This document shows, piece by piece, positions 5,450 through 40,638 of a stretch of DNA of 64,000 bases (positions are counted from its first letter, which is position 1; each line of letters opens with the position of its first letter). This DNA comes from Escherichia coli (lineage in GTDB: Bacteria > Pseudomonadota > Gammaproteobacteria > Enterobacterales > Enterobacteriaceae), in the NCBI RefSeq assembly GCF_013315695.1, contig NZ_CP054353.1. One strand, given 5' to 3'. Below the pieces are notes generated by a model. That model was not told where the DNA came from and ran no database searches. It saw only the letters and a program-made list of their open reading frames with translations. A program made the translations under genes and the position numbers.

Positions 5450-6787
5450 ATGAACACTTCACCGGTGCGAATGGATGATTTACCGCTTAACCGTTTTCAC
5501 TGTCGAATTGCTGCGCTCACTTTCGGCGCGCACCTGACCGACGGTTATGTTCTCGGCGTCATTGGTTACGCCATTATTCAGCTTACGCCCGCCATGCAAC
5601 TGACGCCGTTAATGGCGGGAATGATCGGCGGCTCGGCGCTCCTTGGTTTGTTTCTTGGCAGCCTGGTTCTTGGGTGGATCTCCGACCATATTGGTCGGCA
5701 AAAAATCTTCACCTTCAGCTTTTTGCTGATTACGCTCGCTTCGCTCTTGCAATTTTTTGCCACCACGCCAGAGCATCTTATTGGATTGCGCATTTTGATC
5801 GGCATTGGTCTGGGAGGCGATTACTCAGTCGGTCACACCTTGCTGGCTGAATTTTCCCCGCGCCGCCATCGCGGTATTTTGCTGGGCGCATTCAGTGTGG
5901 TGTGGACCGTAGGCTATGTGCTGGCAAGTATTGCCGGACATCACTTTATTACCGAAAGCCCGGAGGCCTGGCGCTGGCTGCTGGCATCAGCGGCGTTACC
6001 AGCCTTGCTGATTACGCTGCTACGTTGGGGCACGCCGGAATCGCCACGCTGGCTACTGCGCCAGGGGCGTTTTGCAGAAGCTCACGCTATCGTTCATCGC
6101 TATTTTGGCCCGCATGTTTTACTGGGCGATGAAGTGGCAACGGCGACCCATAAACACATCAAAACCTTGTTCTCTTCGCGCTACTGGCGGCGCACAGCGT
6201 TTAACAGCGTCTTCTTTGTCTGCCTCGTAATCCCATGGTTTGTGATTTATACCTGGCTGCCAACTATCGCCCAGACTATTGGACTGGAAGATGCGCTGAC
6301 TGCCAGCCTGATGCTTAATGCGTTGTTAATTGTTGGCGCGCTGCTGGGATTAGTTCTGACGCACCTGCTGGCACATCGCAAGTTTTTGCTGGGAAGTTTT
6401 TTGTTGCTGGCGGCAACGCTGGTAGTGATGGCCTGTTTGCCTTCCGGCAGTTCATTAACGCTGCTGCTTTTTGTTCTCTTCAGCACCACCATTTCGGCAG
6501 TCAGTAATCTGGTGGGCATTTTGCCTGCGGAAAGTTTTCCTACTGACATTCGCTCGCTGGGCGTCGGTTTTGCCACCGCCATGAGTCGGTTGGGGGCGGC
6601 GGTAAGTACTGGCCTGCTGCCGTGGGTGCTGGCGCAGTGGGGAATGCAAGCCACCTTATTGCTCCTGGCGGCAGTGTTGTTGGTTGGTTTTGTTGTGACC
6701 TGGCTATGGGCACCAGAAACCAAAGCACTCCCGCTGGTGGCGGCGGGAAATGTAGGAGGTGCGAATGAACATTCTGTTAGCGTTTAA
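5450..6787 (+). CDS. ygcS: MFS transporter (445 aa)
   Basis: ORF track frame 5360-6787; start placed at the ATG (MNTSPVRMDD...) with a GAAGGGG RBS, downstream of the hairpin; hydrophobic multi-pass protein. Confidence 0.8.
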   Translation: MNTSPVRMDDLPLNRFHCRIAALTFGAHLTDGYVLGVIGYAIIQLTPAMQLTPLMAGMIGGSALLGLFLGSLVLGWISDHIGRQKIFTFSFLLITLASLLQFFATTPEHLIGLRILIGIGLGGDYSVGHTLLAEFSPRRHRGILLGAFSVVWTVGYVLASIAGHHFITESPEAWRWLLASAALPALLITLLRWGTPESPRWLLRQGRFAEAHAIVHRYFGPHVLLGDEVATATHKHIKTLFSSRYWRRTAFNSVFFVCLVIPWFVIYTWLPTIAQTIGLEDALTASLMLNALLIVGALLGLVLTHLLAHRKFLLGSFLLLAATLVVMACLPSGSSLTLLLFVLFSTTISAVSNLVGILPAESFPTDIRSLGVGFATAMSRLGAAVSTGLLPWVLAQWGMQATLLLLAAVLLVGFVVTWLWAPETKALPLVAAGNVGGANEHSVSV

Positions 6788-7544
6788 AGCCGAACCGGAT
6801 GCCGGAATGCTGGCGGAAAAAGAGTGGCAGGCGGCGGCTCAGGGTAATATTGGACCAGATGTTTCGCTACTGCGAAGTTTACTCGGTGCTGATGAACAGG
6901 CTGCCGCCGCGCTGCTGTTGGCGCAGAGAAAAAACGGTACGTCGATGTCTTTAACCGCGTTGAGCATGGGGGATGAACGGGCGTTGCACTGGCTGCGCTA
7001 TCTCATGGCTCTTGGGTTTGAGGACGCTGTATTGCTGGAGACGGTGGCAGATCTGCGCTTTGCGCCGGAATTTGTCGCTCGCCATATTGCCGAATGGCAG
7101 CGTCAGAATCCGCTGGATCTGATAATTACCGGCTGCCAAAGCAGCGAAGGGCAGAATGGGCAAACGCCATTTTTGCTGGCGGAAATGCTGGGCTGGCCCT
7201 GCTTCACCCTGGTGGAGCGTTTTACTCTCGACGCGCCGTTTATCACCCTTGAACAGCGTACTGAACATGGGCTGCGCTGTTACCGGGTTCGCTTGCCTGC
7301 GGTGATTGCCGTGCGCCAGTGTGGTGAAGTGGCCTTGCCAGTACCGGGAATGCGCCAGCGAATGGCTGCGGGGAAAGCAGAAATTATCCGTAAAACTGTT
7401 GCTGTCGAATTGCCAGCGATGCAGTGTCTGCAACTGGCAAGAGCAGAGCAACGACGCGGAGCGACGCTGATTGATGGGCAAACGGTAGCAGAAAAAGCGC
7501 AAAAGCTATGGCAGAACTATTTACGCCAAAGGATGCAGCCATGA
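6765..7544 (+). CDS. ygcR: Electron-transfer flavoprotein beta subunit-like (FixA-like)
   Basis: ORF MNILLAFKAEPD...; overlaps the ygcS stop and the ygcQ start, consistent with translational coupling. Confidence 0.8.
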   Translation: MNILLAFKAEPDAGMLAEKEWQAAAQGNIGPDVSLLRSLLGADEQAAAALLLAQRKNGTSMSLTALSMGDERALHWLRYLMALGFEDAVLLETVADLRFAPEFVARHIAEWQRQNPLDLIITGCQSSEGQNGQTPFLLAEMLGWPCFTLVERFTLDAPFITLEQRTEHGLRCYRVRLPAVIAVRQCGEVALPVPGMRQRMAAGKAEIIRKTVAVELPAMQCLQLARAEQRRGATLIDGQTVAEKAQKLWQNYLRQRMQP

Positions 7545-11420: not shown

Positions 11421-13220
11421 ATGACGACACAGGTCTCACCTTCCGCGTTGCTTCCGTTGAACCCGGAGCAACTGGCACGCCTTCAGGCGGCCACGACCGA
11501 TTTAACTCCCACCCAGCTTGCCTGGGTTTCTGGCTATTTCTGGGGCGTGCTCAACCAGCAGCCTGCTGCGCTTGCAGCGACGCCAGCGCCCGCCGCAGAA
11601 ATGCCGGGTATAACTATTATCTCCGCCTCGCAAACCGGCAATGCGCGCCGGGTTGCTGAAGCATTACGCGATGATTTATTGGCAGCAAAACTGAACGTTA
11701 AGCTGGTGAACGCGGGCGACTATAAATTCAAACAAATCGCCAGCGAAAAACTGCTTATCGTGGTGACGTCAACGCAAGGAGAAGGGGAACCGCCGGAAGA
11801 AGCCGTCGCGCTGCATAAGTTCCTGTTCTCCAAAAAAGCGCCAAAGCTGGAAAACACCGCGTTTGCCGTGTTTAGCCTCGGCGATAGCTCTTATGAATTT
11901 TTCTGCCAGTCCGGGAAAGATTTTGACAGTAAGCTGGCGGAACTGGGCGGTGAACGCCTGCTTGACCGTGTCGATGCCGATGTTGAATATCAGGCCGCTG
12001 CCAGCGAGTGGCGCGCCCGCGTGGTTGATGCGCTTAAATCGCGTGCGCCTGTCGCGGCACCTTCGCAATCCGTCGCTACTGGCGCGGTAAATGAAATCCA
12101 CACCAGCCCGTACAGCAAAGACGCGCCGCTGGTGGCGAGCCTCTCTGTTAACCAGAAAATTACCGGGCGTAACTCTGAAAAAGACGTTCGCCATATCGAA
12201 ATTGACTTAGGTGACTCGGGCCTGCGTTACCAGCCGGGTGACGCGCTGGGTGTCTGGTATCAGAACGATCCGGCACTGGTGAAAGAACTTGTCGAACTGC
12301 TGTGGCTGAAAGGCGATGAACCTGTCACCGTCGAGGGCAAAACGTTGCCTCTGAACGAAGCGCTACAGTGGCACTTCGAACTGACCGTCAACACCGCCAA
12401 CATTGTTGAGAACTATGCCACGCTTACCCGCAGCGAAACGCTGCTGCCGCTGGTGGGCGATAAAGCGAAGTTACAGCATTACGCCGCGACCACGCCGATT
12501 GTCGACATGGTGCGTTTCTCTCCGGCGCAACTGGATGCCGAAGCGCTGATTAATCTGCTGCGCCCGCTGACCCCGCGCCTGTATTCCATCGCCTCCTCGC
12601 AGGCGGAAGTCGAGAACGAAGTACACGTCACCGTTGGCGTGGTGCGTTACGACGTGGAAGGCCGCGCCCGTGCCGGTGGTGCCTCCAGCTTCCTCGCGGA
12701 CCGCGTGGAAGAAGAGGGCGAAGTCCGCGTATTTATCGAACATAACGACAACTTCCGCCTGCCAGCCAACCCAGAAACCCCGGTGATTATGATTGGCCCA
12801 GGCACCGGCATCGCGCCGTTTCGCGCCTTTATGCAGCAGCGCGCCGCTGACGAAGCGCCGGGTAAAAACTGGTTGTTCTTTGGCAACCCGCACTTTACGG
12901 AAGATTTCCTCTACCAGGTGGAGTGGCAGCGCTACGTCAAAGAGGGCGTGCTGACGCGTATCGATCTTGCCTGGTCGCGCGACCAAAAAGAAAAAGTTTA
13001 TGTACAAGACAAACTGCGCGAACAGGGCGCAGAGCTGTGGCGCTGGATCAATGACGGTGCCCACATTTATGTCTGCGGCGACGCTAATCGCATGGCGAAA
13101 GACGTTGAACAGGCACTTCTGGAAGTGATTGCCGAATTTGGTGGCATGGACACCGAAGCGGCGGATGAATTTTTAAGTGAGCTGCGCGTAGAGCGCCGTT
13201 ATCAGCGAGATGTCTACTAA
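11421..13220 (+). CDS. cysJ: Sulfite reductase [NADPH] flavoprotein alpha component
   Basis: 599-aa [21 protein letters not shown]... with flavodoxin and FAD/NADPH-binding domains; operon with cysI and cysH. Confidence 0.95.
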
Positions 13221-15005: not shown

Positions 15006-15740
15006 ATGTCCAAACTCGATCTAAACGCCCTGAACGAACTGCCAAAGGTAGACCGGATTCTGGCGCTGGCGGAAACTAACGCCCAACTGGAAAAACTGGA
15101 CGCTGAAGGCCGCGTAGCCTGGGCGCTGGATAATCTGCCCGGTGAATATGTACTTTCTTCCAGCTTTGGCATTCAGGCGGCGGTGAGCCTGCATCTGGTG
15201 AATCAGATTCACCCGGATATTCCAGTGATCCTCACCGATACCGGTTATCTGTTCCCGGAAACCTACCGCTTTATTGACGAGTTAACGGACAAACTCAAAC
15301 TCAACCTGAAAGTGTACCGTGCTACCGAAAGCGCTGCCTGGCAGGAAGCGCGCTACGGCAAACTGTGGGAACAGGGCGTTGAAGGTATTGAAAAGTACAA
15401 CGATATCAACAAAGTCGAACCGATGAACCGGGCGCTAAAAGAACTGAACGCGCAAACCTGGTTTGCCGGCCTGCGCCGTGAACAATCCGGCAGTCGTGCC
15501 AATTTACCGGTGCTGGCAATTCAGCGTGGCGTATTTAAAGTGCTGCCGATTATCGACTGGGATAACCGAACTATTTATCAGTACCTGCAAAAACATGGCC
15601 TGAAATATCACCCATTATGGGATGAAGGATATTTATCGGTCGGTGATACCCATACAACCCGTAAATGGGAACCCGGCATGGCGGAAGAAGAAACGCGTTT
15701 CTTTGGCTTAAAAAGAGAATGTGGGTTACACGAAGGGTAA
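15006..15740 (+). CDS. cysH: Phosphoadenosine phosphosulfate (PAPS) reductase
   Basis: 244-aa product [14 protein letters not shown]... ending ...ECGLHEG; the track ORF starting at 14853 is a 5' over-extension through the REP element. Confidence 0.9.
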
Positions 15741-22316: not shown

Positions 22317-23063
22317 ATGAGCCAATATCTGATTTTTCAGCTTCATGGGCCAATGGCATCCTGGGGCGTTGATGCACCCGGTGAGGTGCGTCATACCCAT
22401 GAACTGCCTTCGCGTTCAGCATTGCTGGGGCTGCTGGCTGCCGGGGTAGGGATACGGCGTGATGACACCGAATGCTTAAACGCGTTTAATCGCCACTATT
22501 CACTGGTGGTTTGCGCCAGCCGTAACCCGCGCTGGGCACGGGATTATCACACGGTCCAGATGCCAAAAGAGGTGCGTAAAGCGCGTTATTTCAGCCGTCG
22601 CGAAGAGTTGAGCGACCCTGATCTTCTAAGCGCGATTATCTCCCGGCGCGACTACTACACCGATGCCTGGTGGATGGTGGCCGTGGCAACAACAGCTGAT
22701 GCGCCTTACAGCCTCGAACAGTTGCAGGAAGGTTTACGCCATCCGGCTTTTCCGCTTTATCTGGGGCGAAAAAGCCATCCGCTGGCATTACCCCTTGCGC
22801 CGTTACTGCTTGAAGGTAACGCGTCTGATGCCTTACGTAACGCATACCAACAGTATCAGGATCGTTTCCACGAACTGAAAGTCTCACTCCCGAAACTTCA
22901 GGATGAATGCTGGTGGGAAGGGGAGCACGATGGCCTGGTCTCGAGCAAAATATTACGCCGCCGGGATGTTCCTTTAAATCGTCAGCAGTGGCTGTTTGGG
23001 GAACGCACCGTCAATCAGGGGCCGTGGCTCAGCAAGGAGGAACCATGTACCTCTCAAGAATAA
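22317..23063 (+). CDS. casD: Cascade Cas5e/CasD
   Basis: 248-aa ORF MSQYLIFQLHGPMASWG..., Cas5e signature. Confidence 0.9.
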   Translation: MSQYLIFQLHGPMASWGVDAPGEVRHTHELPSRSALLGLLAAGVGIRRDDTECLNAFNRHYSLVVCASRNPRWARDYHTVQMPKEVRKARYFSRREELSDPDLLSAIISRRDYYTDAWWMVAVATTADAPYSLEQLQEGLRHPAFPLYLGRKSHPLALPLAPLLLEGNASDALRNAYQQYQDRFHELKVSLPKLQDECWWEGEHDGLVSSKILRRRDVPLNRQQWLFGERTVNQGPWLSKEEPCTSQE

Positions 23064-36293: not shown

Positions 36294-36310
36294 GTAAGCA
36301 TCTGTCATAA

Positions 36311-36345
36311 AGGCCAGTCTCTTATGAGGCTGGCCTTTTTCTTTT
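36311..36345. terminator. rpoS intrinsic terminator (possibly bidirectional)
   Basis: AGGCCAGTCT-CTTATG-AGGCTGGCCT hairpin followed by TTTTTCTTTT. Confidence 0.6.
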
Positions 36346-36413
36346 GTATGGGGAGTTGGTGTGTTTCGTCGCCTGGATAAGACACGTCAGCGTCCCATCC
36401 GGCAATCAACATC

Positions 36414-36821
36414 CTATTTGCTCATCATCTTGCGCACCAGCTGCATAAACAGCTCCTGCTCTTCTCCACTCAAACGCCCCAAAAATTCCTCATCCACACT
36501 GTCGCCAATCGGTATCGCCGCAGCAAGTACCTTTTCTCCTTCGGCAGTCAGCCAGACAAAGCGTCGCCGCTTATCAGCGGCGTCATGTTCACGTCTGACT
36601 AAGCCACGATTTTCCATTCTTGCCAACATTTCTGCCAGCGTTGCTTTGGTGCTGACTGCTGCTTCTATCAGTGCCACCTGTTCGATACCAGGCTTATCAG
36701 CAATGGCGCGCATCACCGCGTACTGTGGTTTGGTCAGGTCAGGTAACTCGTGCTGCCAGCGGGCCGTATGCTGCTGAAAAAGCTGTCGTAACTGATGGAA
36801 CGCTTTATTTCGTAACGCCAT
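36414..36821 (-). CDS. hosA: MarR/SlyA-family transcriptional regulator
   Basis: 135-aa ORF with a winged-helix MarR fold (TKPQYAVMRAIADKPGIEQVALIEAAVSTKATLAEMLARMENRGLV); divergent from the decarboxylase genes. Symbol from memory of the E. coli rpoS-mutS variable region. Confidence 0.75.
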   Translation of the reverse strand: MALRNKAFHQLRQLFQQHTARWQHELPDLTKPQYAVMRAIADKPGIEQVALIEAAVSTKATLAEMLARMENRGLVRREHDAADKRRRFVWLTAEGEKVLAAAIPIGDSVDEEFLGRLSGEEQELFMQLVRKMMSK

Positions 36822-36936
36822 GTAAACTCCGGGCTAATTCTCTGTCGCTATCATAGCGGTTTTTCAGTGACGAAGAAGATGTTGTTACTTTTCAATCCTT
36901 GCCGCTGTGGAAATGAAGGAGTATGTTAATAATAAC

Positions 36937-36950
36937 GTTCGTATACGAAC
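36937..36950. promoter_or_regulatory. Perfect 14-bp palindrome, candidate MarR-family operator
   Basis: GTTCGTATACGAAC lies 18 bp upstream of the ecdB start codon in the hosA/ecdB divergent region. Confidence 0.4.
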
Positions 36951-36967
36951 AATTAAGAGAGTAAGCA

Positions 36968-37561
36968 ATGAAACTGATCGTCGGGATGACAGGGGCTACC
37001 GGTGCGCCTCTTGGTGTGGCATTACTGCAAGCGCTGCGGGAGATGCCGAATGTCGAGACTCATCTGGTGATGTCGACGTGGGCGAAAACCACCATTGAAC
37101 TGGAAACGCCTTACAGCGCTCGCGATGTTGCTGCCCTCGCAGACTTCAGCCATAACTCGGCGGATCAGGCGGCGACCATCTCCTCAGGTTCCTTTCGTAC
37201 CGACGGCATGATCGTTATTCCGTGCAGTATGAAAACGCTCGCCGGTATCCGTGCCGGTTACGCCGATGGCCTGGTAGGGCGCGCGGCGGACGTCGTGCTC
37301 AAAGAAGGCCGCAAACTGGTGCTGGTGCCGCGTGAAATGCCGCTTAGCACCATCCATCTCGAAAATATGCTCGCACTTTCGCGCATGGGCGTGGCGATGG
37401 TGCCGCCGATGCCTGCCTTTTATAACCATCCCGAAACGGTAGATGACATTGTCCAGCACGTGGTAGCCCGCGTGCTGGATCAATTTGGCCTCGAACATCC
37501 TCACGCCAGGCGCTGGCAAGGATTGTCGCAGACCCGGAATTTTTCTCAGGAGAATGAATAA
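36968..37561 (+). CDS. ecdB: UbiX-like flavin prenyltransferase (prenyl-FMN synthase), decarboxylase subunit B
   Basis: 197-aa ORF MKLIVGMTGATGAPLGV... with UbiX/Pad1 flavoprotein signature. Confidence 0.85.
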   Translation: MKLIVGMTGATGAPLGVALLQALREMPNVETHLVMSTWAKTTIELETPYSARDVAALADFSHNSADQAATISSGSFRTDGMIVIPCSMKTLAGIRAGYADGLVGRAADVVLKEGRKLVLVPREMPLSTIHLENMLALSRMGVAMVPPMPAFYNHPETVDDIVQHVVARVLDQFGLEHPHARRWQGLSQTRNFSQENE

Positions 37562-38988
37562 TGGCATTTGATGATTTACGCAGCTTTTTACAGGCGCTCG
37601 ACGACCATGGGCAATTGCTGAAAATCAGCGAAGAGGTGAACGCAGAACCGGATCTGGCAGCCGCAGCCAACGCCACCGGGCGTATCGGCGACGGCGCGCC
37701 AGCGCTGTGGTTTGATAATATTCGCGGCTTTACCGATGCCCGCGTGGCGATGAACACCATCGGTTCCTGGCAGAACCACGCGATTTCCCTCGGCCTGCCG
37801 CCAAATACCCCGGTTAAAAAACAGATCGATGAGTTTATCCGCCGCTGGGACAACTTCCCGATTGCCCCGGAACGCCGAGCCAATCCAGCCTGGGCGCAGA
37901 ACACCGTCGATGGAGACGAGATCAACCTGTTCGATATCCTGCCGCTGTTTCGTTTAAACGATGGCGATGGCGGTTTCTATCTCGACAAAGCGTGCGTGGT
38001 TTCCCGCGATCCGCTTGATCCGGATAACTTCGGCAAGCAGAACGTCGGTATCTACCGCATGGAAGTGAAGGGCAAACGTAAGCTCGGCCTGCAACCGGTG
38101 CCGATGCACGATATCGCCCTGCATCTGCATAAAGCGGAAGAGCGCGGTGAAGATCTGCCGATTGCGATCACCCTCGGTAACGATCCGATCATCACGCTGA
38201 TGGGGGCCACGCCGCTGAAATATGATCAGTCCGAGTACGAAATGGCAGGCGCGCTGCGTGAAAGCCCGTACCCGATCGCCACCGCCCCGCTGACTGGTTT
38301 TGATGTGCCGTGGGGTTCAGAAGTGATCCTCGAAGGGGTTATCGAAAGTCGTAAACGTGAGATCGAAGGGCCGTTCGGTGAGTTTACCGGCCACTACTCC
38401 GGTGGGCGCAACATGACCGTGGTGCGCATCGATAAAGTCTCTTACCGCACGAAACCGATTTTCGAATCGCTGTACCTCGGCATGCCGTGGACGGAAATCG
38501 ACTATCTGATGGGGCCAGCCACCTGCGTGCCGCTGTATCAGCAACTGAAAGCCGAGTTCCCGGAAGTGCAGGCGGTGAACGCCATGTACACCCACGGCCT
38601 GCTGGCGATTATCTCCACCAAAAAACGCTACGGTGGCTTTGCCCGCGCGGTGGGCCTGCGTGCGATGACCACGCCGCACGGTCTGGGCTATGTGAAGATG
38701 GTGATTATGGTCGATGAAGACGTTGATCCGTTCAACCTGCCGCAGGTGATGTGGGCGCTCTCCTCGAAAGTGAACCCGGCAGGGGATTTGGTGCAGTTGC
38801 CGAATATGTCCGTGCTGGAACTCGACCCAGGCTCAAGCCCGGCGGGGATCACCGACAAGCTGATTATCGACGCCACCACGCCTGTCGCCCCGGACAACCG
38901 TGGTCACTACAGTCAGCCGGTGGTGGATTTACCGGAAACCAAAGCCTGGGCTGAAAAACTGACCGCTATGCTGGCCGCACGTCAATAA
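37561..38988 (+). CDS. ecdC: UbiD-family (prenyl-FMN-dependent) aromatic acid decarboxylase subunit C
   Basis: 475-aa UbiD-family ORF; start overlaps the ecdB stop. Confidence 0.85.
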   Translation: MAFDDLRSFLQALDDHGQLLKISEEVNAEPDLAAAANATGRIGDGAPALWFDNIRGFTDARVAMNTIGSWQNHAISLGLPPNTPVKKQIDEFIRRWDNFPIAPERRANPAWAQNTVDGDEINLFDILPLFRLNDGDGGFYLDKACVVSRDPLDPDNFGKQNVGIYRMEVKGKRKLGLQPVPMHDIALHLHKAEERGEDLPIAITLGNDPIITLMGATPLKYDQSEYEMAGALRESPYPIATAPLTGFDVPWGSEVILEGVIESRKREIEGPFGEFTGHYSGGRNMTVVRIDKVSYRTKPIFESLYLGMPWTEIDYLMGPATCVPLYQQLKAEFPEVQAVNAMYTHGLLAIISTKKRYGGFARAVGLRAMTTPHGLGYVKMVIMVDEDVDPFNLPQVMWALSSKVNPAGDLVQLPNMSVLELDPGSSPAGITDKLIIDATTPVAPDNRGHYSQPVVDLPETKAWAEKLTAMLAARQ

Positions 38989-38998
38989 GGAGAACAAG

Positions 38999-39235
38999 AT
39001 GATTTGTCCACGTTGTGCTGATGAACAGATTGAAGTGATGGCGAAATCGCCGGTAAAAGATGTCTGGACGGTCTACCAGTGCCAGCATTGCCTCTATACC
39101 TGGCGCGATACCGAACCGCTGCGCCGCACCAGCCGCGAACATTATCCCGAAGCGTTCCGCATGACGCAGAAAGATATTGATGACGCGCCGATGGTGCCGA
39201 GCATCCCGCCGCTGCTGGCGGAAGGTAAGCGCTAA
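38999..39235 (+). CDS. ecdD: Small zinc-ribbon decarboxylase subunit D
   Basis: 78-aa ORF with CPRC...CQHC cysteine pairs; last gene of the ecdBCD-type operon. Confidence 0.75.
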   Translation: MICPRCADEQIEVMAKSPVKDVWTVYQCQHCLYTWRDTEPLRRTSREHYPEAFRMTQKDIDDAPMVPSIPPLLAEGKR

Positions 39236-39273: not shown

Positions 39274-40638
39274 TCAAATTACCGCCCATACGCACCAGGT
39301 AATTAAGAATCCGGTAAAACCGAGAATGGTCGTTAACACTGTCCAGGTTTTCAGACCGTCTGCTACCGACAACCCCAGATATTTGGTCACAATCCAGAAC
39401 CCTGAGTCATTAATATGTGACGCGCCAAGCCCACCAAAGCAGGCTGCCAGCGTCACCAATACGCACTGAATCGGATTCAATCCCATCACCGCTTCTGAGA
39501 GTAACCCGCCGGTTGTCAGGATTGCTACGGTTGCTGACCCCTGCGATGCACGCAGCGCCAGTGAAATAATAAATGCGGCTGGTAACAGAGGCAGGTCAAT
39601 CATTTGTAGCATGTTGGCAAGGGCTTTGCCGACGCCCGATTCCACCAGCACTTTGCCAAATACCCCTCCAGCACCAGTAACCAAAATCACTACCGCCGCG
39701 GTGGGAAGGGCTGAGCCCATAATGTCGCTGGTGTGTTGTAAGCTCCAGCCGCGACGTAAAGCCAATAACCAGAATGCCAGCACCAGCGCAATCATTAGAG
39801 CTACCATTGGTGAGCCGATCAGCTGTAGCGTACCAAGCAGGGGATGCGAAGGCGGCATCAGTGTTGCGGAAACCGTACCCGCCATGATAATCGCGATAGG
39901 AATAACAATTAGCGAGGTGACCAGCGCGACGCCCGGTGGATTTATTTTATCGCTTAATTTTGTCGCGCCTTCCTCACTGGCCGGAGCCAGTTGCATCTGT
40001 TCCAGTACTTCCACCGACATCGCATATTGGCGCTTATTGATTATTTTCGCTGCAAAGTAGCCAACAATCCCTACGGGAATAGAAATCGCAATACCGATGA
40101 TGGTTAGCCAGCCGATGTCTGCGTGGAGTAACCCCGCTGCGGCGACAGGGCCTGGATGCGGCGGTACCGCCACATGAACAGTTAGCATGATTCCAGCGAC
40201 AGGCAGGCCAAATTTGAGTGGCGATATTTTGGCAACCTTGGCAAAACCGTAAATGATTGGCGCAAGAATAATAAAGCCGACATCAAAGAAGACGGGGATA
40301 CCGAGGAAGAACGCTGCCAGAGTCAGCGCAGCGATAGTTCGTTTGTCACCTAACTTGCGACTGAAATAATTAGCCAGTGACTCTGCACCACCAGAGTGTT
40401 CGATCATACGCCCCAGCATAGCGCCCAGACCAATAATAATAGTGACGGAACCAAGCACACCGCCCATCCCGGCGATCATCACTTTACCCACTTCGCCCGC
40501 CGGTATACCCGCCGCAAGTGCGACTAACAGGCTGACGAGGAGCAGAGCAACGAATGGTTGTACCTTTGCCTTGATGACCAGCAGCAACAGCATGATTACG
40601 CCAGTTAACGCAATGCATAACAATGTAATTGTGGACAT
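39274..40638 (-). CDS. ygbN: GntP-family permease
   Basis: 454-aa hydrophobic ORF with GntP-family topology; first gene of the minus-strand ygbJKLMN cluster. Confidence 0.85.
   Translation of the reverse strand: MSTITLLCIALTGVIMLLLLVIKAKVQPFVALLLVSLLVALAAGIPAGEVGKVMIAGMGGVLGSVTIIIGLGAMLGRMIEHSGGAESLANYFSRKLGDKRTIAALTLAAFFLGIPVFFDVGFIILAPIIYGFAKVAKISPLKFGLPVAGIMLTVHVAVPPHPGPVAAAGLLHADIGWLTIIGIAISIPVGIVGYFAAKIINKRQYAMSVEVLEQMQLAPASEEGATKLSDKINPPGVALVTSLIVIPIAIIMAGTVSATLMPPSHPLLGTLQLIGSPMVALMIALVLAFWLLALRRGWSLQHTSDIMGSALPTAAVVILVTGAGGVFGKVLVESGVGKALANMLQMIDLPLLPAAFIISLALRASQGSATVAILTTGGLLSEAVMGLNPIQCVLVTLAACFGGLGASHINDSGFWIVTKYLGLSVADGLKTWTVLTTILGFTGFLITWCVWAVI

Follow-up and report, generated by a model that had tools for sequence, protein, structure and literature searches.

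Which protein binds the 14-bp palindrome in the gap between the divergent genes hosA and ecdB of Escherichia coli, and which of the two genes does it control? In the window, the whole 64-kb stretch of E. coli DNA analysed here, these genes follow immediately after rpoS and belong to the variable rpoS-mutS region (Table 1). The regulator encoded beside the palindrome had been assigned to the MarR family by the first-pass annotation. Its MarR domains confirm this, and it is identical in 132 of 134 residues to the crystallised protein deposited as 'Transcriptional regulator HosA' in PDB entry 8aga, next to which there are six further PDB entries. The products of the divergent operon score 311 bits (VdcB), 791 bits (VdcC) and 121 bits (VdcD) against NCBIfam models, all above the cut-offs, and an identical E. 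coli locus carries the same ecdBCD annotation in RefSeq. The hosA-ecdB segment is present in 2,404 of 5,426 complete E. coli genomes and is always chromosomal.

Table 1 Features of the hosA-ecdBCD locus in window coordinates.
Feature	Position	Strand	Description
hosA, MarR-family repressor gene	36414..36821	-	Pfam MarR PF01047 and PF12802; match to PDB 8aga
Predicted hosA -10, TATGAT	36850..36855	-	Inside the 13-bp perfect palindrome CGCTATCATAGCG (36846-36858); core 84-99% conserved
Predicted ecdBCD -35, TTGCCG	36899..36904	+	TTG (36899-36901) 99-100% conserved
Predicted ecdBCD -10, TATGTT	36922..36927	+	T36922 100%, A36923 99% and T36927 92% conserved
HosA operator (proximal HosA box), GTTCG-TATA-CGAAC	36937..36950	.	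Perfect palindrome; arms 96-100% conserved; equals the published site
Probable ecdB ribosome-binding region, AAGAGAG	36955..36961	+	Read from the sequence; the orthologues show GAGG here in the alignment
ecdB-ecdC-ecdD, VdcB/C/D-type non-oxidative hydroxyarylic acid decarboxylase operon	36968..39235	+	NCBIfam; ecdB is 36968-37561

The surroundings of the operon differ among strains. Beyond ecdD, the window contains a gene for a GntP-family transporter on the minus strand (39274-40638; NCBIfam PRK09821, 827 bits). In E. coli AR_0077 (L084), the hosA-ecdB segment is 100% identical to that of the window, but in the compared region (5864-7148) ecdD is followed by pphB and mutS. Therefore, the window represents a different rpoS-mutS variant at this site. 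Among the NCBIfam models, HosA comes closest to BagL/FevM and EcdB to BagM/FevK of the Streptomyces bagremycin/ferroverdin cluster, in both cases under the cut-off. The matches hint that a module of MarR, UbiX and UbiD genes is common to several phyla.

The palindrome GTTCGTATACGAAC spans positions 36937-36950 of the 146-bp gap between hosA and ecdB. It was verified by a script to equal its own reverse complement, as the first-pass annotation had claimed, whereas a repeat search of the gap listed only an overlapping imperfect palindrome. The symmetry stops at 14 bp. Seventeen nucleotides lie between the palindrome and the ecdB ATG (36968), and the earlier description of the palindrome as 18 bp upstream of the start codon is thus correct to one base. 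The palindromy alone is not significant. The window contains four perfect 14-bp palindromes, and 4.0 are expected from its base composition and 5.3 from first-order Markov simulations; palindromy by itself therefore carries no claim. The expectation for the hosA-ecdB gap is 0.011, and the palindrome at 36937-36950 is the sole non-coding one of the four. The other three, TGGTCGCGCGACCA (12972-12985), the 16-bp AAGAAACGCGTTTCTT (15688-15703) and TTAAACGCGTTTAA (22476-22489), are all located within open reading frames of at least 150 amino acids, and their number is that expected by chance. The 64-kb window harbours no further copy of the 14-mer; the next best sequence has three mismatches, which is at chance level. 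The real significance of the palindrome is supplied by its conservation.

The comparative scan used the regulator as the query, with one genome per species. Because the query was the regulator rather than the palindrome, the test was unbiased with respect to the latter. The scan yielded 80 loci that encode HosA, spread over about 20 genera of enterobacteria, with HosA identities from 100% down to 60%. All 80 loci contain GTTCG-N4-CGAAC upstream of hosA, with at most one mismatch in the arms. In 74 of them, ecdB is divergent from hosA; every one of these has the box, 71 with perfect arms, and in three Rahnella loci the GTTCG arm is replaced by ATTCG. The distance from the box to the ecdB ATG is usually 15-21 nt. 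The six loci that lack ecdB, in which hosA faces ecdC, all keep the box (L048, L065, L066, L071, L076 and L080, from Pluralibacter, Superficieibacter, Cedecea and some Rahnella). Within the 492,697 nt of related loci, 75 occurrences of the motif were counted, as compared with 0.54 expected, and in these approximately 493 kb of fetched sequence it was not found outside hosA upstream regions. Only the four central bases vary, as TATA, TGTA, TACA, TATG or CATA.

The conservation is confined to the box rather than spread over the gap. In a MAFFT alignment of 73 distinct hosA-ecdB gaps, scored by identity to the window, the arms are 99.6% identical, the centre 84% and the remaining gap 49%, and the most conserved 14-nt stretch of the gap is the palindrome. 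The recognition helix (TKATLAEM) and the wing (DKRRRF) of HosA are nearly invariant in 73 orthologues. Within the species, the exact 30-mer around the perfect palindrome is present in at least 1,700 E. coli genomes, once per genome, and a variant of the 30-mer in the centre (GTG) occurs in 70. Strains of O157:H7 preserve the palindrome, whereas their flanks differ. This comparative evidence is decisive.

Two of the sampled hosA loci, L001 and L017, come from a single 'Citrobacter sp.' metagenome-assembled genome. The HosA of L001 (DXKH01000072.1, a 5,967-bp contig) is 100% identical to that of the window, and the HosA of L017 is Citrobacter-like (77%). The short L001 contig may be Escherichia DNA that was binned into the Citrobacter genome.

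The box of the window is identical in 14 of 14 positions to the published HosA site. According to later papers, Roy & Ranjan 2016 (Biochemistry 55:1120) recognised the palindrome as the binding site of HosA and placed it downstream of the point where transcription of the operon begins, and two preprints credit the same study with the finding that HosA represses the HAD (decarboxylase) operon and that 4-hydroxybenzoic acid (4-HBA) relieves the repression. A biosensor study of HosA from E. coli UMN026 (PMC6261655, Sci Adv 2018) refers to a palindromic '14-bp TFBS of HosA'. Binding of HosA was demonstrated there by electrophoretic mobility shift assay and biolayer interferometry, 4-HBA caused dissociation, and the KD of HosA for 4-HBA was 4.74 uM. 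Over 35 nt (36926-36960), the oligonucleotide DNA_HosA-F0 of that study agrees with the window in every base, as does oligonucleotide T_H over 27 nt (36930-36956). The 16-mer CGTTCGTATACGAACA, which corresponds to positions 36936-36951, is sufficient when placed in foreign flanks: HosA shifts such DNA, and p-HBA releases it, as a second biosensor study showed (PMC6694116, Nat Commun 2019). Binding, release by 4-HBA and repression of the operon have been shown in the literature for the exact sequence. A full-text literature search with the 14-mer as the query retrieved no paper.

The machine-read Table S1 of PMC6261655 contains a 15-nt version of the site, GTTTCGTATACGAAC, with an extra T, which we regard as a transcription artefact. 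The table has the same 15 letters on each of two complementary oligonucleotides, and a genuine 15-mer could not read alike on both strands. According to the body of the same paper, the site has 14 bp, and both T_H and the oligonucleotides of the Nat Commun study carry the 14-mer. Furthermore, the match to the window extends over 35 nt for the 14-bp version, as opposed to 23 nt for the 15-nt reading.

E. coli UMN026 has the same hosA-ecdBCD order beside rpoS and a near-identical regulator, and its operator shares the 14-bp palindrome and its flanks with the window over the 35 nt of 36926-36960. The two strains differ in the distance from the box to the ATG, which is 16 nt in UMN026 and 17 nt in the window, and in the sequence before the ATG, GAATAAAC versus GAGTAAGCA. 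No functional difference is expected from these deviations in the outer gap and leader. The earlier proposal of an operator for the decarboxylase operon is correct and was already known: the sequence equals the published site, and on the ecdB side the comparison of the loci, with a box at each of the 80, is in independent agreement.

The position of the box relative to the ecdB promoter becomes apparent only through cross-species conservation. A generic sigma-70 scan of positions 36300-37100 gave no match above the threshold, because the hexamers match at just 8 of 12 positions. However, 74 of 75 distinct gaps contain the pattern TTGnnn-N16-18-TAnnnT ahead of the box, in contrast to 5.5% of shuffled sequences. 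The spacer is 17 bp long in 73 of the 74 gaps with the pattern, and the end of the -10 element precedes the box by 9-10 nt (range 7-11), again in 73 of the 74. On the basis of this conserved pattern, transcription of ecdB is predicted to start at approximately 36934. The box would then span roughly +4 to +17, in agreement with the published summary of a site downstream of the transcription start. The first-pass annotation had located the palindrome within the region of the divergent promoters. It does lie within the gap, but not between the two predicted promoters, since it follows the predicted ecdB start.

The gap of L069 (Enterobacteriaceae bacterium LSJC7) is 598 bp long, compared with the usual length of approximately 170 bp. 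Its box has retained the usual distance to ecdB (16 nt), but the TTG-N17-TAnnnT pattern was not found upstream of the box, which suggests that the gap underwent an insertion or rearrangement.

We conclude with high confidence that the palindrome is the operator at which HosA represses the divergent ecdBCD operon and from which it is released by 4-hydroxybenzoic acid. A HosA dimer would occupy the half-sites GTTCG and CGAAC. Counted from the predicted ecdBCD start, the box covers roughly +4 to +17 and would be located within the region that RNA polymerase must occupy. Because the box is inside this footprint, HosA should block the transcription of ecdB. The bound dimer would prevent either open-complex formation or promoter escape and thereby keep the decarboxylase operon off. 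A substrate of the decarboxylase, 4-hydroxybenzoic acid, binds to HosA and causes it to leave the DNA, and the operon would be turned on. We infer the promoter position and the geometry of occlusion from conservation, and the role of the box as the ecdB operator is firm.

Autoregulation from a divergent gap is common among MarR regulators, and the box could accordingly serve chiefly as a bidirectional operator for the autorepression of hosA, occluding an overlapping or adjoining hosA promoter. We consider this unlikely. The gap in Escherichia contains no HosA box other than 36937-36950, and according to two preprints, auto-repression by HosA was among the findings of Roy & Ranjan 2016, so that repression of its own gene is reported only second-hand. 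However, the predicted hosA -10 element is located 28-29 nt from the hosA ATG, and the box lies approximately 81 nt upstream of this element in the window and 104-105 nt upstream in most genera. The spacing of the box is constant relative to the ecdB promoter and not to hosA. The alignment of 73 gaps revealed no conserved minus-strand promoter that overlaps the box. The one hexamer tried as such a -10 element, TATTAT, the reverse complement of 36929-36934, was rejected, as two of its positions are only 18% and 34% conserved.

The predicted -10 element of hosA is part of a conserved block, CTAT(C/G)ATAGC, on the hosA side of the gap (36848-36857). We also considered CTAT(C/G)ATAG as a second symmetric operator. 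Loci that lose the outer symmetry nevertheless retain ATSATA, and a minus-strand -10 element is therefore preferred. The CGCTATCATAGCG block (36846-36858) was also flagged by a pattern scan, which classed it as resembling a plus-strand terminator. In most genera, TTAAAA precedes the hosA -10 element by 17 nt, where Escherichia has CTTCTT; Escherichia is without about 25 nt that are found in other genera, including their TTAAAA -35 element of hosA. On this model, the ecdB and hosA promoters would be positioned back-to-back, and the box overlaps none of the promoter elements predicted for hosA. Direct occlusion of the hosA promoter by the box is not evident, because the box is so far from the -10 element and no minus-strand promoter overlaps it. 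Of the auto-operator originally proposed, the second-hand report of autorepression speaks in favour and the distance to the predicted promoter against.

It is very improbable that the palindrome acts as an RNA hairpin, whether one that affects the stability or translation of the ecdB 5' leader or a weak terminator on the minus strand. Transcription from the ecdB promoter is predicted to include the box, which can form a stem of 5 bp closed by a loop of 4 nt, and a terminator-like site was flagged by a pattern scan on the minus strand at 36951-36936. The fold has an energy of -6.5 kcal/mol, but 124 of 200 shuffled sequences fold equally well (z = +0.43). No Rfam family matched 36937-36950, even at E values up to 1. 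Protein binding to the duplex DNA has been published (PMC6261655, PMC6694116). Among 73 sequences, the arms do not vary and show no compensatory changes, and a related distal box of other genera, described below, is upstream of the -35 element and would lie outside the transcript of the ecdB promoter. As an intrinsic terminator, the site would have a stem of only 5-6 bp with approximately -5 kcal/mol and an interrupted tail, TTATTATT, and no minus-strand gene upstream reads into it.

HosA is a homologue of SlyA, and MarR paralogues can cross-bind. The relevant binder might thus be SlyA or another MarR paralogue, with the binding of HosA incidental, to which we give hardly any credence. The box accompanies hosA in 80 of 80 loci, including those with operons that lack ecdB, and the locus and the box are jointly missing from approximately 56% of E. 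coli genomes. The recognition helix and the wing of HosA are conserved together with the box. Finally, a palindrome that arose by chance and has no function, as the ordinary number of palindromes in the window would permit, is already refuted by the 96-100% conservation of the box across about 20 genera in which its flanks diverge, by the restriction of the motif to hosA upstream regions and by the published binding, and its probability is practically nil.

Repressors of the PcaV and HpaR type are ligand-responsive members of the MarR family that act on aromatic-acid pathways. The substrate of a phenolic-acid pathway releases them from a palindromic operator, which is located at a divergent promoter for catabolic genes. 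PcaV of Streptomyces coelicolor (PDB 4fht/4g9y) is the nearest solved relative after HosA itself (E = 7e-16), with which it shares the winged-helix MarR fold. The model of HpaR also matches HosA of the window. Sequence similarity to these repressors is remote, with scores under all NCBIfam cut-offs. PcaV and HpaR differ from HosA in operator sequence and ligand, and the target of HosA is a decarboxylase of the UbiX/UbiD type instead of a ring-cleavage pathway. MarR, with its operator marO, and SlyA of E. coli are dimeric proteins that bind short inverted repeats overlapping promoter elements. Against the SlyA equivalog model, HosA of the window scores 28 bits with a cut-off of 120, and against MarR 26 bits with a cut-off of 240. 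The SlyA consensus is TTAGCAAGCTAA, to which the HosA half-site GTTCG is unrelated. Whereas the operators of MarR and SlyA cover the -35 and -10 elements, the HosA box is positioned just downstream of the predicted start.

A second, distal HosA-like box, G[AG][TC]CG-N4-CGAAC, is present in 35 of 75 gaps (L006, L009, L014, L018-L021, L025, L027, L030, L034, L036-L039, L041, L043-L047, L049-L059, L063, L064 and L068). Its right arm is perfect, and its left arm has one or two mismatches. In all 35 gaps, it ends exactly 4 nt before the TTG of the ecdB -35 element, 56-57 bp upstream of the proximal box. Therefore, two boxes bracket the core ecdB promoter in these genera, which are Klebsiella, Enterobacter, Kluyvera, Leclercia, Lelliottia, Pseudocitrobacter and Pluralibacter, about half of the species sampled. 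The distal box has been lost in Escherichia, including the window (aligned positions approximately 36881-36894), Citrobacter and Salmonella. Fifteen of the 35 distal boxes contain the Dam site GATC in the left arm and are followed immediately by a second one, and 11 more have the first site only; the context is GTGATCGTATGCGAACGATCTTGTCA in, for example, L037, L038, L043, L045-L047 and L050. It is purely speculative that these sites may make the distal box sensitive to methylation. We tentatively suggest, while regarding it as doubtful, that the distal box is functional and undescribed; in that case, HosA control has been simplified in Escherichia, and autoregulation there may differ from that in the two-box genera.

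The practical value of the operator is in annotation. The box carries no annotation in the RefSeq records of E. coli, although it has been defined by experiment as an operator and also serves as the sensing element of biosensors for 4-hydroxybenzoate, a breakdown product of parabens. The current understanding of the HosA system is unchanged, and the comparative data add to it a conserved promoter-operator geometry. The box, with the precise consensus GTTCG-N4-CGAAC, travels with hosA over about 20 enterobacterial genera.
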